Source: Narcine bancroftii (Eukaryota). Taken from it: a stretch of DNA of 64,000 nucleotides. The translations under genes were made by a program, and so were the position numbers. The notes under the pieces are model-generated. The model ran no database searches, had not been told where the DNA came from, and was given only the letters and a program-made list of their open reading frames with translations. Shown here one piece after another: positions 20,190 to 53,974 of this stretch. Location: contig NW_027211947.1 in the NCBI RefSeq assembly GCF_036971445.1, forward strand, positions 1 through 64,000. Reading direction: 5' to 3'. Every line of letters begins with the position of its first letter. Position 1 is the first letter of the stretch.

Positions 20190-20540
20190 TGTGTTTATTG
20201 TCATACACATTTTACATGTACACCAAAATTCTGATTTGCAGTCGAACAGTTACTGGTAAAGAAAAACTGATAGTAAACAATTACATTAATTGAGACATTA
20301 AATACATGATGGACAGAAATAGTCACAGTGATCCTAGTGCAAAAAAAAAGTGATTTGTAATAATGCAAACAGTCCTTTTGTGATGTTTGAACAGTCTGTG
20401 ATTAATGAACAAAGGGTAGGTTCAAGAGCCTGGTAACCGTTGGGGAAAAAAAAACTTCCTGAATGTGGAACTGCTGGATTTTGGCTTCTGTGTCTTCTGC
20501 CCGAAGGTACCAGTGAAAAGAGGTTGTGACCAGGGTGCAA
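20190..20540 (-). mobile_element. Rex1/Babar-like 3' fragment
   Basis: HPGHNLFSLVPSGRRHRS. Confidence 0.65.
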
Positions 20541-21411: not shown

Positions 21412-21663
21412 TCAGCAATATTCCATTCCTTCTTCTCCAAGGTTGAATCCTTCATGAATCTGAATTTCGGTTTTAGTGAAAATCCGCAGCATAAATGATC
21501 CATCGGTGTCTGGTGCAAAGGTACTTGGAATAATGACATAGTGTCCTGGCATCAGTTTGCTATGGAGGGTTATGCTTCTCTGGGCTACATAGGCTCCTGA
21601 ATCTGAAACCTCTGTATGATTTGTAAAATGCTGAGCAGTTAGAACTCTCTGGGGATCATAAGA
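21412..21663 (-). CDS. Atypical calpain, coding exon 12 (last; end of CBSW/C2L domain, stop)
   Basis: ttttaacag acceptor; SYDPQRVLTAQHF...SGAYVAQRSITLHSKLMPGHYVIIPSTFAPDTDGSFMLRIFTKTEIQIHEGFNLGEEGMEYC*. Confidence 0.92.
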   Translation of the reverse strand, partial: SYDPQRVLTAQHFTNHTEVSDSGAYVAQRSITLHSKLMPGHYVIIPSTFAPDTDGSFMLRIFTKTEIQIHEGFNLGEEGMEYC

Positions 21664-22502: not shown

Positions 22503-22624
22503 CTTGTAAATCTGAATCCCAATGGGACTCATTGAGATTCCAAGCTTCCTGTTCATCCTTTTGTAATTCTGAATTAAACAGATTAGAATAGAACATGCCC
22601 CATCTTCAAGGTCTTCATCACCAT
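22503..22624 (-). CDS. Atypical calpain, coding exon 11 (CBSW acidic loop)
   Basis: cag...gtaag; DGDEDLEDGACSILICLIQNYKRMNRKLGISMSPIGIQIYK; phases 1 and 0 fit the neighbouring exons. Confidence 0.92.
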
Positions 22625-25360: not shown

Positions 25361-25483
25361 CTGTTTTTGCGATGGTTATGGGGTATTGAGGGTTACAACT
25401 GTAACTGTTAATATTATTTCTGCATCCACCTGCATTTATTCCAATCACCCACTGACACTTCACTTCTTTCAAGCTGCCAGCAT
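25361..25483 (-). CDS. Atypical calpain, coding exon 10 (CBSW start)
   Basis: ttacag...gtaag; DAGSLKEVKCQWVIGINAGGCRNNINSYSCNPQYPITIAKT (W....AGGC.N....NPQY motif). Confidence 0.93.
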
Positions 25484-27223: not shown

Positions 27224-27309
27224 CTGCTCCTCCGTCATCATCAAAGTCGGGGCCCAGTGTCAAAACTGTGATATTTGCAAACTTCTGGCAAAAGTCATCA
27301 AATTTCATC
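27224..27309 (-). CDS. Atypical calpain, coding exon 9
   Basis: cacag...gtaat; (W)MKFDDFCQKFANITVLTLGPDFDDDGGA. Confidence 0.92.
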
Positions 27310-27407: not shown

Positions 27408-27485
27408 CAGAATTCTCCATCCGCCTTCTTGGTAAATCCAAATGATTCCCTTGTCCAGAATGGGATTTGATTCCATAGAGGTGAA
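27408..27485 (-). CDS. Atypical calpain, coding exon 8
   Basis: aaag...gtggg; (D)SPLWNQIPFWTRESFGFTKKADGEF(W); 98-bp intron follows. Confidence 0.9.
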
Positions 27486-28119: not shown

Positions 28120-28680
28120 TTCAGGATATTGACCAAACCATAGAATGCGTGGACAGAGAGGTACCACTCTAACTGTACAAGACAGCAAGAATAGTGTAAT
28201 TTATGGACACCACATTACAGAAATGATGAGGTTGCGCAGGAGACTAACTTGGACGTTGCCAGGTATTTTCTGTTATGATTAAGGTTGCCTTTGTGGAATT
28301 GTTTTCCTTGAAATGAAGAAGACTGAGGGGAAATTTAATTCAGATTCATAAATTTATGAGAGACTTGAGAGGATGAACAGGATGGACCCACTTCCCTTAG
28401 CGGAGAGGTCGATAATGAGGGAACATTGTTAATCAACAGAAAGAACAGAAGGGAGCTGAGAAAAGAAAATCCCACCGAGTGGTGGCTTCTGTAACTCACT
28501 GCCAGAGAGGGTGATGGAAGCAAAAACCTCACATTTGAAAGGTACCTGGTTGAGCACTTGGAGAGTCTGGACCTGGAAAGACACGGATCATAAGAATTGG
28601 AGTGGGATTAAACATAATAGATCAATTTTCCTAGAATGGACATGATGGGCTGAAGAGCCTCCTTTCTGTGCTCTAAATTA
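28120..28680 (+). mobile_element. Old CR1 3' fragment
   Basis: Degenerate similarity to the other CR1 tails in the window. Confidence 0.55.
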
Positions 28681-33366: not shown

Positions 33367-33461
33367 TCGTCACCCCAGTCCCCTGTCCATTCCATGTTTT
33401 TCCCTGATCCCCATGGATTGAGAATCCGAACAAGGGGCACTCTTCCTTTTGGAGTAGTTAG
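33367..33461 (-). CDS. Atypical calpain, coding exon 7 (catalytic Asn)
   Basis: tttag...gtaagt; LTTPKGRVPLVRILNPWGSGKNMEWTGDWGD. Confidence 0.95.
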
Positions 33462-34205: not shown

Positions 34206-34277
34206 CTTTTTAACTGCAGTAACTCCATAGGCATGCCCAGCAATTAAACCATCTTGGTTTTCATATCTGTTATCTCC
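34206..34277 (-). CDS. Atypical calpain, coding exon 6 (catalytic His)
   Basis: tttag...gtaat; GDNRYENQDGLIAGHAYGVTAVKK. Confidence 0.95.
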
Positions 34278-36855: not shown

Positions 36856-37036
36856 CCTTCCTGTTCCACAGGCCATTAGAGCATTCTTCCTGGAGGCAGC
36901 AGCAAGACGATCGTACAGTTCCTCATATCGATCTGCGTAGTCTGAGAATCTGTAAATTTCACCCACACCACCAGTGAGGTCAGTCAGGGCATCCAGCGTC
37001 CATCCTCCTTCAATCGCTTTATATGAACCATGTAAC
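36856..37036 (-). CDS. Atypical calpain, coding exon 5
   Basis: cacag...gtaag; (K)LHGSYKAIEGGWTLDALTDLTGGVGEIYRFSDYADRYEELYDRLAAASRKNALMACGTGR. Confidence 0.95.
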
Positions 37037-39073: not shown

Positions 39074-39257
39074 TTTGCAAATGCCTTTTCAAAAAGCGAT
39101 GGCCAAAATTCATTGCTGGCTTCTGATCGAGCATAAATAAGTTGTCCATTTCTTGTTGGCAAATAATCATCCACCAAAATTTCTACCCATTTCCCAAATT
39201 GCCAGAATCGGAAACGAAAGATTCCATAGTATGGAGAGCTGCCGGTGATAAACTGGC
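39074..39257 (-). CDS. Atypical calpain, coding exon 4
   Basis: tacag...gtaagt; GQFITGSSPYYGIFRFRFWQFGKWVEILVDDYLPTRNGQLIYARSEASNEFWPSLFEKAFAK. Confidence 0.96.
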
Positions 39258-45155: not shown

Positions 45156-45300
45156 CTGATGGAATAACCCTCTCTGTTAATCTTTTGTATTTGGCTATTG
45201 TAGCCACTGATGCCCAAAACCAACAGTCCCCCAGCTCACCCTGCACAATATCACTTTTGCTAACTCCATCTGTCATAAAGAAAGGATTTTCGTGCAGGTC
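45156..45300 (-). CDS. Atypical calpain, coding exon 3 (catalytic Cys)
   Basis: ctag...gtaag; DLHENPFFMTDGVSKSDIVQGELGDCWFWASVATIAKYKRLTERVIPS. Confidence 0.96.
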
Positions 45301-45369: not shown

Positions 45370-46035
45370 GTTTTAAAATATTTTTATTCATTTTAATAAA
45401 GAAGTTATACAAAATAAAAGGTACAATTCAATAAGATGATATGGAAGGTTACGCAAACTTAATAAGGCATTCTGTGTAACAAAAACCTACAAATTGTAAA
45501 TTATATCCATAATTCATATTATAAATAGTATATACCTTTTTGGGAAAAAAACCTCTAATAATACAAAAAAATTAAAATAGTAAAGGAGAAAAATTCGACC
45601 TTACCTTACCTATATGATTAGTATTCAAATAAAAATGAAGGTAGAAAAAAGTATTAATATAAGGAACATGGAAAAGACAATTTAATTACATTGAAGTGAA
45701 ATTATGAAGTAAGATGGTGAGTCATAAATGACTCCAATAACCTCTGGAATCTCATATTTGAATTATTAATTGAATAACAAATCTTTTCCATATTCAAACA
45801 GGACGCGATGTCACACAACCACTGATCATGAGTAGGCGGGGCATCATCCTTCCATTTAAGTAAAATCGTGTGCCTCGCCAAAAGAGAAGGAAAAGAAATG
45901 ATGGGTCTCTGAAACCAGGGACAAAGAAGATCATCACCTCCTGTTGTGCCAAAGAGAGCTATCAAAGGATTCGGTGTTAAATCAATATTTTTGATAAAGT
46001 ATGGAAAATCTCTCTCCAGTATTTTTCTAGACAAT
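45370..46035 (-). mobile_element. L1 LINE ORF2 C-terminus and 3' UTR
   Basis: PNPLIALFG...LLARHTILLKWKDDAPPTHDQWL. Confidence 0.75.
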
Positions 46036-46894
46036 AAGAAAATAAGTCTAGAAAAATTATTAATAAGAATGAATTGTTAGCATTTTGAAATTTACAGAAC
46101 AATATAATGAAGCACATTAGGTCTGTGATAAAGCTGTCCATTTAATTCCATGACCATCCCATCAGTCTTCTCTCTCTCACAGACATTTTCCTTCAACATA
46201 TTTATCTCAAGATTCAAAATTCAATTTATTGTCATGTAATAAAAAACACATTATATAACACGAAATTGCCTTTTGACTGCTATAAAAGAGATAGGAAGAA
46301 TTTGCCTGAAGCACCGCTTACAGTCAGAGAAAGAGAAGCAAAAGAGAGACCACAGCTCCCCACCAACAGAATCACTGAACATTTGTGGAATTGCCTCCAG
46401 TGCTCCCGCAAACTCCGCGGCCACACAAGAGTCCAGTTCAAATCATTGCCATCTCGAGCACCAGATCCAAACTTCCGAAATGATAAGGAACCCTTAAGCA
46501 TCCTTGGCACCTTCTCGCGTCTCAGATCCAATACCTGGTTACCCCTTCAGCCAGTTTCAAGCCAGTGTCCAGCAGTCCGCAACCTGGTGTGAGTTCCTTC
46601 ATCGCAGTCTCCAGCAGCGTGGCTTTGTCACCTCGAGTCACCAACAGCCTGCTGCCTGTGTGAGTCCATCAGCCGCAGAACCCCTCATTGGCCTGGTGCA
46701 GTGGTCACCATCCTCTGCTTCTCCTTCTCAGACGAGGGGTGGGGGGATGGTCTCCCTGTTTTCTGGTGCCCTGCACCAGTCCTCCGCTTTCCAGGAGAAT
46801 GCAAACCCCTTGAGGCTGCAGCTGATCAGAGGCACCTGATCAGCTGGATGAAGACTCCACAGTTACGGGATTTTAAATAAAATCAATTTATCTC

Positions 46895-48164: not shown

Positions 48165-48296
48165 CACGGTGCGAATCCATTTGATTCCTTCTGGGACCAC
48201 ATGTTCATAGGTTAACGATGAAGGCTCAGGAAGAAAATCAGGATCTACCCAGAGTTCTCCAGTCACTTCAAGTTCTTTTATAATATTCTGATAGTT
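48165..48296 (-). CDS. Atypical calpain, coding exon 2 (start of CysPc)
   Basis: attcag...gtaac; NYQNIIKELEVTGELWVDPDFLPEPSSLTYEHVVPEGIKWIRTV (DP.F.P...SL...W.R motif). Confidence 0.92.
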
Positions 48297-48577: not shown

Positions 48578-50467
48578 TACCCAAAACATTACAGCTTAGG
48601 CACAATTCTAGAAAGATATTCCAAAGTTCAGTCTTGGAAATCCTGTCTTGAAACACAGGCTTTTAAACTGATGCCCAGAAGTAATCACGAAGGAGGTGGG
48701 AGAGACTGAGTGACCGACTGCTGAAAACTCACAAATCCTCGTCGAGTTTCTTGCTGAGAAATATACTTTTGTGTGAACGGTGGTCACAACCCTCCTTTTC
48801 CTTGCATAGGGGAATTGAAACGTGTGACTTCCACGATGCTTCCACAACCCAGGTATGGGTCAGTCGAAATGACCATTACTTTGGTCACAATCCGATACAG
48901 AAATTCTCCAGCATCCAAAACCCAAGGAGGTCAGTCAAAGTGACCTTTCCTTTGGCCACGGTGTGGTTCAATAATTCCCCTGACATGGAGAAACAGCCGA
49001 GTTGTCCATTTCACACAGAGTCACTCCACCTTAGATGGCTGATGGTCAATAATGTTTCCTTCAGTGATCCATCAGTATTCCACCTGTGTCCCTGGATAAA
49101 GCAACAAATGTTCTTTCTCTTCCTCCAGAGTATCAACTTTGGGTATAGGCTGTACTAGATATTGACACCCAGTCCCTCCACATCTGTGAATGGTTGCAGC
49201 CAGTACAATCCCTTAAAATGATACTCACACTAAATGAAATGAAAGATCATAATACAAGATATGTAAGTTGATTTTACATCCATAAAACCACCTGATATCT
49301 GAATTCTAGACATTAATATTTTAAAATAAATTACCAAGGAATCTCCAATGTAATTTTTGATTGTGTGTTTAGCTATTCTGTAGGGGAATTAAAACTTGCT
49401 TCTGTATTAGTATGATACTAATGTTGAACACAAAGTCCATTTGTAAAGCTATCAGATTATTTTAATTTAATTGTTTGATTAAGAAATTGTATGATTCAAA
49501 CGTGCTGATGTTTTCAAGCTTCTTATTATTTTAAAGGTGAATTAATCCATTAATTGTGGAGTCAATGACAACAAAAATGATTTCTAAATATTAGGACAAT
49601 GTTTGAAATAACTCAAATGCCTTACAATGAATTGAAACATTTTCATTTAATTTTACTCCCACCAATCACCAATAAGTAATGAGTGTTTCTTTGGTGGGTT
49701 ACACATTTGAGCAAGCTAAAAAAAACTCACAAAACAATAGAGACCAAATGTCAAAAATGTAATCATTTCAATGTTTTTTACCTCACATTATTATTCACAG
49801 ACCTGAATCAGGAATATGAATGTACAGATTTAGAAGTGAATCCTGAAATGTTTCTTAGATGTTTACTTAATTATATAATCTTGAGGTGTGGTGGGGGGGG
49901 GGGGGGGGGAATGTAGAAGTGTATTACATTGGTCTCAATTATAAAACCAGCATCATCTTTGTTAAGGTTGTGGTCAGTTTAAATTGCAATCACTTATAAA
50001 TGCATTTCAGTTTATAAAGGTATTAACAAAGAATGTTCTATTACCTATGTAAAGTATGGAAACAAACTAATATAGAGCCGAAGAGTTATAGAGTAGATTA
50101 ATTTAGTTTATTTATATAGCACATTTAAAACAACTCATGTTGACCAACGTGCTGTACAGATTATAAATTACATCTTGACTTAAGCAGCTATTTAAAGTGC
50201 GGTATAAAACAGGCTTACTTCCATGCCTGTGCATAAGTAAATACCAAGGGGCCCAGGGCGATTCAGTATGTTTAACTTTACTCTGGTGAACAATTATGAG
50301 AAATTTTACAGATTTAAAAACTTTACCTTGCAACTACCCAATGTAACTAAAACAATGAACTTCAAAAAGATTTCAATCTTTCAAGGACAAATTGTAAGAA
50401 AATGTAAAATGCAGTTTGCATAAATCAGGCCAAGTTTTGACAGTAAGTGATATGTAAAAACGATTAC

Positions 50468-50743
50468 CGATTCAATAATTAGGTTGTCGTCTATTTTCAG
50501 CATTTCATTCACTTGATTCATTAGTTCCTCAATGTCATTCTTTCTAGGATGAAAATCAAGAAGAGCTTTCACATCCTCCGTGAGCATATTCCATTTTGAA
50601 TTGTCCCCTTTCACTTCTGACACTTTGTCTACTTTCATCTCCAGCACTCTCTTGCCATTACTGTTGCTTATGGAGGATGCATCTGCCTGTATGAAATGAA
50701 TTTGAGTTACAGTAGTATGGGTACATGAACAACTGTTCCCCAT
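50468..50743 (-). CDS. Atypical calpain, coding exon 1 (92-aa N-terminal extension with MGNSCSC)
   Basis: ATG immediately preceded by in-frame TGA; acceptor ttaacag at 50785/50784; donor TCG|GTAATC in phase 0 matches exon 2; no domain homology, so the link is inferred. Confidence 0.72.
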
Positions 50744-51378
50744 TCAGCACTGAATCCAAGTTTGCTGAGGTTAAGAGTGACACCTGTTAATTACATAGTC
50801 ATAAGATATACAGGAAGATCTTTCAGAAACTGGAATCAATTACCTCTGTTGCTACGAGACATGACACACAATGCCCTCCTTCTGGGAAAAGCAACTCTTT
50901 TAGAGTCATATTTTTATAACAGACACTTCAGACAAAGTGTCTGAGCAATTCTGTATTCATCTCAACAAAAAAAGTCTTAATTTGTCCAAAAAGCAATGTA
51001 TTACAAAGGACTTGTTGACCTGAACTGATGTGGTTACTTAAGGGGACAAATTGTTGCACTCCTTTCCTGACCTTCTGTGTGAGTGAAAGGGAGATATGAG
51101 CAAATGAACAGTTAATCATTTCAAATTTGTTGCAGATTCGAGACTTGCACAATGAAAACAACAGATGAAAGCATTTGCCAACAAAATGCTTTTTTCATCA
51201 GTCTACCAAAGAGGACAGATGAGGGCTGAGCAGTTATGTTGTCTGCATGGACTTTAGCAAGGGCTTTCACAAGGTCCTACGTGGTAGGTTGTTTTGGAAG
51301 ATTTGATCACATGGGATCCAAGAAGAACTAGCCAATTAGATTCAAAAATGGTCAGGAGGTAGGAGTCAGAAGGTAGTC

Positions 51379-52200
51379 GTGGTAGTCCCTTCACAAGTCA
51401 CCTATAACTGTGTGGCTCAATATAACAACGCCATTTACAAATTTGCTGACAACACCACAGTAGTGGGCTGTATAAAAAGGGCTGATGAGTCAGCTTTCAG
51501 GTGGGAGACTGAAAACTTGGGTGAATGGTGTACAAACCACAACCTCGCACTCAATGTCACTAAGACCAAGGTGCTCATTGTAGACTTTAAGAAAGGAAAA
51601 CCAGAGATGTACAACCCATTGATCATTGAGGGATCAGAGGTGGAGAGAGTGACTAAATTGAAATTTCTGGGAGCCACTATCTCGGAGGACATGTATTAGA
51701 CTCACCATACTAACATCATTGTGAAGAAAGCATGTCAACGCCTCTACTTCCTTAGGAGTTTGCAGAGATTGGGTATGTCATTGTAAACCTTGGCAAACTT
51801 CTGTAGATGTGTGGTGTAAAGTGTGCCGACCAGCTGCATTATGGCCTGGTATGGGGGTACCATTACCTCAGCAGAGAGCCCTGCAAAAGGCATTGGATTG
51901 TAGATTGTAGGCAAAACTCACCTCACTTATCGAGAACATCTACAAGGAACACTGACTTCAGAGAGCAGTAACAACCATCAAGGATACACACCACCCAGAA
52001 AATGCTCTTCTCTCTCTGCTACCATCGAGAAAGAGATATAGGTGCTACAAAGATGGCACCACTAGGTTCAGGAACAGTTATTACCCCTCCACCATCAGAC
52101 CGCAAAGCAGCAGACTCAATTTGGGACTCTTTTAAAATCTGTTACTTGTGCATTCTGTACATTCTGACACGAAACATTGTCTGCACCTGGCCAATGCACA
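51379..52200 (+). mobile_element. Rex1/Babar-like LINE (RT C-terminus and 3' end)
   Basis: YKFADNTTVVGCI...WCTNHNLALNVTKTKVLIVDFKK...KFLG. Confidence 0.85.
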
Positions 52201-53081: not shown

Positions 53082-53974
53082 CCAAATATTCTCGTGTAAA
53101 AGTCAAATTTTGTAGACCATTTTTTAATGTTAAATTTATGGGGTGATTATACATGGATACTACTTTTGAAGGGCTGAAATATCAGAATCAGAAACAGAAT
53201 TTATTGACATGAACAAGTCATGAAATTTGTTGTTTTGTGGCAGAATCACAGTATTATAGGCATCTTTTTACATTACTATGAAAGAAGTAAAAATAACAGT
53301 GCATGAAAAGTAAGGTAGTGTCTTTGGTTCCTTGATTATTCAGGAATCTGATGGCAGCGGGGAAGGAGCTGAGTGCTCGTCTTTAGGCTCCTGAACTTTT
53401 TCCCTGATGGTAGCAGAGTGAAGAGGTCATGGCCTGGGTGGTGGTGGGGGGGGGGGTCTTTAAGGATAGAGGCTGCTTTTTTAAGTCACCACCTCATGTA
53501 GCTGTCCTCCATGGAATGAAGGCTGGTGCCTGTGATCTCGCAAACACATGTATGCGACATCACTGGAATCTAAAATACCCTATCAATAGCAGATCCAAAT
53601 GATTTCTAAACAAATAAAGAACAAAAACGCAATGAATTAAAGCAATAATACAGAGTCTGTGCATCAAAGCATTTGTCTTACCACGAGGGTTGGGACTGTC
53701 ATATCTGTGTTAATGGAGGCTTTGGGAGCTCCGATCAGTGGGCAGCCGGGGCTGAGGTGAGACTCAGTGTCCGAGGCATCAGGGGCTCTGAGAGATGGGC
53801 AACTGTGGCTGAGGCGTGAGTTCACAATCGAGGCATCAGGAGCTGCGGGCAGCCAGGGCTGAAATGAGAGACTTAGGTCAACTTTACACAAGATGTATGG
53901 AAAATTCCAGATTTTTTGGCCAAAAATAGGGGCTGACTTTTACATGAGATCGACCTTTACAGGAGTATAAATGG
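53082..53974. mobile_element. pogo/Tigger-like element (TA-flanked) with nested Rex fragment (about 53180-53545, minus) and internal GC-rich tandem units (53730-53880)
   Basis: Imperfect TIRs CCAAATATTCTCGTGTAAAAGTC / GACCTTTACAGGAGTATAAATGG. Confidence 0.55.

Follow-up and report, generated by a model that had tools for sequence, protein, structure and literature searches.

The window analysed here, 64,000 nucleotides of the ray Narcine bancroftii (RefSeq assembly GCF_036971445.1, contig NW_027211947.1, positions 1 to 64,000), carries a calpain gene on its minus strand. Our first homology search returned the NCBI calpain-A-like protein of this species (P0001) as a 100% match, and 13 exons of the window with AG/GT ends rebuild P0001 exactly. 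Following the minus strand, an upstream exon (53682..53858) and an exon transcribed as 50468..50686 precede the coding exons for the start of the CysPc protease core (48165..48296), the catalytic Cys in QGELGDCW (45156..45300), two further CysPc segments also present in RNA contigs (39074..39257 and 36856..37036), the catalytic His in GHAY (34206..34277), the catalytic Asn in NPWG (33367..33461), another CysPc segment (27408..27485), the end of CysPc (27224..27309) and the CBSW/C2L region (25361..25483 and 22503..22624). The last coding exon (21412..21663) reaches its stop directly after CBSW, without PEF or C2. A candidate poly(A) signal lies on the same strand at 20194..20199, 1212 nt 3' of the stop, beside the 1224 nt 3' remainder that length arithmetic gives for contig X1. 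The junction from 50468 to 48296, a check named by the original prediction, is contained in the RefSeq proteins P0001 and P0004. It also agrees with the RNA: two contigs have 278 letters between 50468 and 39256, equal to the two intervening exons plus base 39257, a match of length arithmetic in which the intervening pieces lie outside the contig rows listed.

RefSeq isoform X1 includes an extra coding piece (window 28548-28577) that adds 9 residues inside the protease core. Introns and flanks also hold ORF fragments (51340-51699, 45702-46076, 12788-13600 and others) that by their look we take to be LINE-type retrotransposons; their high summed contig depth fits repeats.

The protein consists of PF00648 (333 bits) and one PF01067 stretch, with its end 21 residues further on, and a Pfam scan returned no match to an EF-hand (PEF) or to C2 (PF00168). 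Aligned to m-calpain, its Cys/His/Asn triad is intact, as expected of the calpain superfamily. The acidic residues that we take to be the core calcium ligands align with those of m-calpain as well, and the Arg of what is presumably the core salt bridge is a Lys in the ray. The skate orthologue, modelled with AF2 (123-sequence alignment, mean pLDDT 83.6), has calcium-bound m-calpain, 3BOW, as its best fold match (TM 0.73); an ESM Atlas search gave generic calpain clusters only.

Ahead of the core, a minus-strand ATG at 50743 opens MGNSCSCTHTTVTQIH..., and the translation bears out the predicted MGNSCSC frame with Gly2, Cys5, Ser6 and Cys7. The frame spans 92 codons as far as a GT donor at 50467, its phase agrees with that of the exon at 48296, and an in-frame TGA (50744..50746, minus strand) abuts the ATG on its 5' side, also as predicted. 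Its first 16 codons (50696..50743, minus strand) form the motif MG(N/S)SCSCxHTTVTQIH, defined by translation and ortholog comparison and lying outside the RNA contig pieces listed. The consensus for myristoylation in SH4-type starts comprises Gly2, an allowed residue 3, Ser/Thr at position 6 and a Cys within 10 residues, and MGNSCSC has each of these, so that Gly2 is a predicted myristoyl site and Cys5 and Cys7 are predicted palmitoyl sites. Fyn, Lck and G-alpha-i carry such dual-acylation starts, sharing with the ray motif Gly2, a small residue 6 and a nearby Cys; we draw a functional analogy and claim no homology. MG followed by Ser/Thr6 and two Cys in ten residues occurs at one of the 2714 ATGs that the two strands of the 64-kb window contain, namely the motif ATG, and a looser pattern of MG and one Cys at four. 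Positions 1-25 are without basic residues, which we counted against a lipid anchor. A Pfam scan of the first exon gave a single sub-cut-off phage match, judged chance, and a search of metagenome contigs with a degenerate DNA form of the motif had 0 matches.

The motif is followed by a linker that had been described as about 85 charged, probably helical residues. Its charge was confirmed (25/85), while helicity held for the later part only: in the skate model, residues 1-50 have pLDDT below 50, and helices are placed at 50-60 and 67-84 with values of only ~47-62, so the linker is probably disordered first and helical later.

Transcripts were examined in four runs from one study (X1-X4), which were taken as RNA by guess and whose intron-free contigs fit RNA. 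In all four, the contig pieces on the motif exon stop at 50685 (one base ambiguous; acceptor 50686), and not at 50783, where the exon had been predicted to begin. The exon as transcribed (50468..50686, minus strand; contig pieces, P0001/P0004) thus holds 73 linker codons, behind an inner acceptor AG at 50688-50687 that falls at the Gln19 codon. Contigs of X3 and X4 show the join to 53681-53858, and in a third run the leftover length fits the same structure. The upstream exon contributes an ATG at 53702 and a motif-free start, MTVPTLV; both RefSeq isoforms begin with these residues and resume at Ala20 of the motif frame. Contrary to what had been proposed, the TGA before the motif ATG therefore does not fix the start, since the sampled transcripts enter the exon at the inner acceptor and skip the motif. 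Shares of 27 sampled sequence words agree with this structure: the runs held 0.67, 0.67, 0.67 and 0.59 of the words, against 0.66 expected if only 50468-50686 is present; in runs X5-X7 (organism B) the shares were 0.18-0.22. The upstream exon contains an internal repeat of ~57 nt at 71% identity (window 53716-53844) with the frame open throughout, and 60-67 more transcribed bases lie 5' of it at a place not located.

No motif-bearing transcript was found among the contig pieces listed for the four runs (60209 further pieces lie beyond that listing), nor in the two RefSeq isoforms. Rare forms are lost from contigs of this depth (~7-15), and the RefSeq models may derive from these reads; therefore the motif-free form is shown and the absence of the motif form is not. 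In the sampled material the ray mainly makes the form without the anchor, and its motif ATG is at best an alternative start. The 5' part of the exon as originally predicted (50744..50783, minus strand, after an AG at 50785-50784) is covered by no listed contig; the tract of that acceptor has 10/19 pyrimidines, and the other 13 scored acceptors have 9-16. Because joining the upstream exon to 50783 would leave the motif ATG covered by an out-of-frame uORF of 48 codons, the motif form probably needs another first exon or promoter. We found neither in the window beyond a weak TATA-like candidate, an octamer at 50911..50918 (minus strand), 175 nt 5' of the motif ATG, of which ~0.1 are expected by chance per 200 nt.

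These transcripts bear on the possibility that the family is lipid-anchored and the ray recently abandoned the motif, starting only from the upstream exon and making a soluble protease with an undecayed leftover motif. Skipping of the motif in 4/4 runs and 2/2 RefSeq isoforms, contigs that pass the 50686 junction unbroken, and the uORF conflict all speak for such disuse, yet the four runs represent one study at a depth where contigs lose rare forms, and the comparison with other fishes weakens the idea further. Orthologues at 57-81% identity were recovered from 12 other species, and in eight of these (Chiloscyllium, Amblyraja, Leucoraja, three Acipenser, Polyodon and Polypterus) the deposited model, whose start is a gene prediction, opens with MG(N/S)SCSCxHTTVTQIH. 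As for the four models without the motif, those of Protopterus and Latimeria are without the N-terminal region, that of Hemitrygon begins further down, and that of Heptranchias has four different starting residues, breaking off where the ray splice falls in the alignment. In all six motif-bearing orthologues compared, 14-16 of residues 1-16 are identical to the ray across shark, skate, sturgeon, paddlefish and bichir, in line with the conservation of MGxxCSC that the original prediction had asked for. Over residues 17-92, by comparison, 13-15 of 76 are identical in four bony-fish rows (sturgeons, paddlefish, bichir) and 45/76 in skate. The bamboo shark retains 16/16 residues of the motif and 35/76 of the linker, contrary to what recent disuse would leave, and the Heptranchias break is a hint of a long-established alternative splice, not of recent loss. 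We therefore consider recent abandonment unlikely. Judged by its sequence, the motif is genuine and strongly conserved, and the gene that bears it is real and looks active; its database label is no more than "calpain-A-like".

Conservation could also act on the DNA or RNA, as a branch point or as part of the 50686 acceptor, leaving the MG...C incidental. The motif does overlap the upstream part of the acceptor used in the RNA, but bony-fish orthologues keep the peptide without the Gln at the inner-acceptor position, and unrelated N-termini across the invertebrate relatives described below also open with MG..C, and we hold this explanation to be very improbable.

Among the fish models, P0002 (Chiloscyllium) and P0003 (Hemitrygon) stop at the equivalent of the exon ending at 36856, without the catalytic His and Asn; a break in the assembly or annotation could account for this, as could decay of the gene in some sharks and rays. 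Shorter RefSeq isoforms of skate and sterlet (P0124, P0125, P0129) start inside the core, without the motif.

The lineage of the gene was addressed with a profile search of 1.84 billion representatives. Next in rank after the fish orthologues came PEF-less calpains with MG starts, and both a 241-row FastTree and a 64-row IQ-TREE (LG+G4) group the fish proteins with these calpains; reference rows were labelled by look and tail length, with EF-hands checked for 2. In the IQ-TREE the clade has 23 rows and support of 95/98, and besides the fishes it spans lancelet, tunicate, echinoderms, arthropods and molluscs; two lancelet proteins can be named in it, along with those of Clavelina, Antedon, Patiria, Diadema, Penaeus, Periplaneta, Biomphalaria and Liolophura. 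Inside it, a chordate group (80/85), the echinoderms (100/99) and a group with the named protostomes (91/84) fit descent. Horizontal transfer from an invertebrate was dropped because the branching of the clade tracks the animal tree, although the chordate group has only 80/85.

Other assignments of the ray gene were weighed. A vertebrate classical calpain would carry PEF, whereas the ray protein is without it and has no EF-hand match, and in AU tests on a 30-row tree union with the vertebrate classical calpains (CAPN1/2/3/8/9/11/12/13/17) was rejected (p 0.00017). Tra-3/CAPN5/CAPN6 fails for want of PF00168 and by the same test (p 0.0038), and, on domain content, a CAPN10-type calpain with two C2L domains does not fit the single PF01067 stretch; no CAPN10 was recognised among the fetched proteins. 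Taken by its tree placement, the gene is a separate ancient lineage, not an odd classical calpain.

Across the clade, the acylation signature recurs. From 150 representatives we dropped 16 whose best match did not span the core, leaving 134. The myristoylation pattern was present in 12 of 15 clade representatives and 5 of 119 outside, and together with a Cys in the first ten residues in 11 of 15 and 1 of 119, counts that come from related rows and not from independent draws, with P0225 joining the clade only in the 64-row tree. None of 20 clade proteins scanned had an EF-hand or C2 match, and three controls were positive.

These N-termini also inform a further alternative, in which the 16-residue segment is translated and kept mainly as a protein- or metal-binding peptide (HTTVTQIH), with myristoylation alone or no acylation. 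N-myristoyltransferase reads 6-8 residues, and conservation that reaches residue 16 goes beyond them; TTVTQI, moreover, resembles what we take to be a site for the dynein light chain LC8. The invertebrate relatives, however, keep Gly2, a small residue 6 and a Cys without HTTVTQIH, the pattern expected of an acyl anchor, and the two roles can coexist. A mainly peptide-binding role seems to us quite improbable.

Some starts of this kind lie elsewhere in the trees, a point that we counted against the anchor reading. P0100, P0103, P0105, P0116, P0118 and P0121, mostly unnamed calpains near Tigriopus/Lepeophtheirus, have MGNCC-like starts and fall outside the clade. Since this separate MG and Cys group lies outside it, anchors predicted from such starts in animal calpains appear to have arisen more than once. 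The crustacean proteins P0016 and P0034, which we take to be CalpM-like, are without PEF, yet group among the classical calpains, outside the clade.

The architecture of the ray protein, CysPc and a single C2L with nothing after, is that of a bilaterian family named Truncated by Hastings et al. 2017 with low bootstrap support (PMC5650170), comprising AplTRUNC1 and relatives in Lottia, Crassostrea, Limulus, Strongylocentrotus and Branchiostoma. The same animal groups occur in our clade, two lancelet members are found in both, and the clade's chiton protein has two C2L stretches, a likeness to the Atypical L calpains of the same study (PMC5650170). By its matching taxa our clade may correspond to the Truncated clade (AplTRUNC1, BRATRUNC, PURTRUNC, LIMTRUNC), whose published accessions had no counterpart among our named rows; the ray gene is probably a vertebrate member of it, as judged by architecture and tree. 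The accessible part of PMC5650170 differs in listing no truncated vertebrate, its vertebrates being human, Xenopus, zebrafish and one Fugu sequence, and its main text has 0 occurrences of "myristoyl". That term and "truncated" are absent from the available portions of PMC13664112 and PMC13413365. A literature search that was thin on subscription journals and mostly by listing returned nothing on the fish lineage or on a family-wide anchor.

Acylated calpains are known from other groups. The original prediction had cited trypanosome CAP5.5 as a user of an SH4-type anchor, which agrees with its description as a calpain-type protein with a myristoyl and palmitoyl N-terminus (PMC4181241), and such anchoring extends beyond trypanosomes: the Plasmodium falciparum calpain carries myristate on Gly2 and palmitate on Cys3/Cys22 (PMC2746569), and S-acylation of human CAPN5 has Cys4 among its sites (bioRxiv 2022.01.25.477766). 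In the two protists, as proposed here, acylated N-termini direct location (PMC2746569, PMC4181241); their proteins differ in having other N-terminal domains and are not among the rows of our trees, and the protist and animal anchors are likely convergent. Human CAPN5/Tra-3 resembles the ray protein in being PEF-less, membrane-associated and S-acylated (bioRxiv 2022.01.25.477766), but has a C-terminal C2 domain in addition to its rejected union with the ray gene. The classical calpains (CAPN1, 2, 3, 8, 9, 11, 12, 13, 14 and 17; PMC4043111) share the catalytic core and the CBSW fold, but carry PEF, were rejected as a union and have ~35% identity in the fold alignment.

The explanation we favour, and hold to be likely on balance, is that the ancestral and main form of the protein is dual-acylated, membrane-tethered and calcium-activated, and that the ray also makes an anchorless form. 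The gene would be an intact calcium-activated CysPc-CBSW calpain and would represent, in jawed fishes, an ancient bilaterian family without PEF in which the N-terminus is usually a lipid anchor. In the motif form, Met1 would be removed, Gly2 myristoylated, and Cys5 and Cys7 then S-palmitoylated; the acylated N-terminus would tether the protease to a membrane through the disordered linker, and calcium binding by the core would activate it close to substrates at the membrane, with neither small subunit nor C2 required. In the ray, splicing of the upstream exon to the inner acceptor just past the motif yields a second, anchorless form that is presumably soluble. The gene structure, the domains, the intact triad, the conserved motif, the place in the tree and the transcript without the motif are established; acylation, membrane location, calcium activation and continued production of the motif form in the ray are what we infer. 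The proposal that a lipid anchor replaces PEF- or C2-mediated targeting is strongly supported by comparison, through motif conservation in jawed fishes and the prevalence of Gly2 and Cys in the clade, with the motif-skipping ray transcripts on the other side; with this family-wide pattern, the anchor mechanism appears plausible.

A broader reading makes the gene part of a vertebrate calpain lineage that has gone unrecognised, came down from the bilaterian ancestor and is defined by an acyl anchor instead of PEF/C2. It would have persisted in cartilaginous fishes, bichirs, sturgeons, lungfish and coelacanth and disappeared from teleosts and amniotes, and sharks and rays would have added the inner acceptor, through which the same protease switches between membrane-bound and soluble forms. 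We offer it tentatively, as a possibility somewhat short of even chances. No teleost or tetrapod orthologue was found among the best 120 matches listed of 8000 candidates scored, and in the large profile search only three rows, from the same orthologue group, ranked above the invertebrate members, bar one fused two-core prediction. The evidence for loss in teleosts and tetrapods is nevertheless weak, because orthologues already known escaped the word index, clustering at 50% conceals members and several well-sequenced sharks are missing too. The word-index search was lossy, missing the skate and Heptranchias proteins, and a search with the motif region returned 4 proteins, all already known, among 6 candidates, and missed the skate protein.

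All species that yielded orthologues belong to lineages that, we assume, have ampullary electroreceptors; the matches contained no gar, bowfin, teleost, frog or amniote, and neither a salamander nor a caecilian. Slow genome evolution would explain this species set equally well, and a role in electroreceptors strikes us as very unlikely. Calpain has 0 occurrences in the supplementary file of PMC5429088 as available, and the accessible part of PMC7720607 includes one unnamed "Calpain-1 catalytic subunit" transcript in its ampullary-organ-high list, which is not assignable to the lineage of the ray gene.

What activity Truncated calpains have, how they are regulated and what they do has been called an open question (PMC5650170, in the part accessible), and a shared acyl anchor would offer a direct explanation, open to testing, of the way in which a calpain without PEF or C2 finds its substrates. 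With this gene the known vertebrate calpains gain a lineage, one left out by surveys of classical calpains (PMC4043111, as far as available) or of human, frog and teleost genes; no human counterpart is known, and its medical weight is limited. Should both forms be produced, alternative splicing would determine where an active protease resides. At the opposite end of the protein, a Cys is found within the last five residues in ray (window 21412-21430), sturgeon, paddlefish, bichir and lungfish, not in skate or Heptranchias; in these several orthologues it is possibly a second lipid site.
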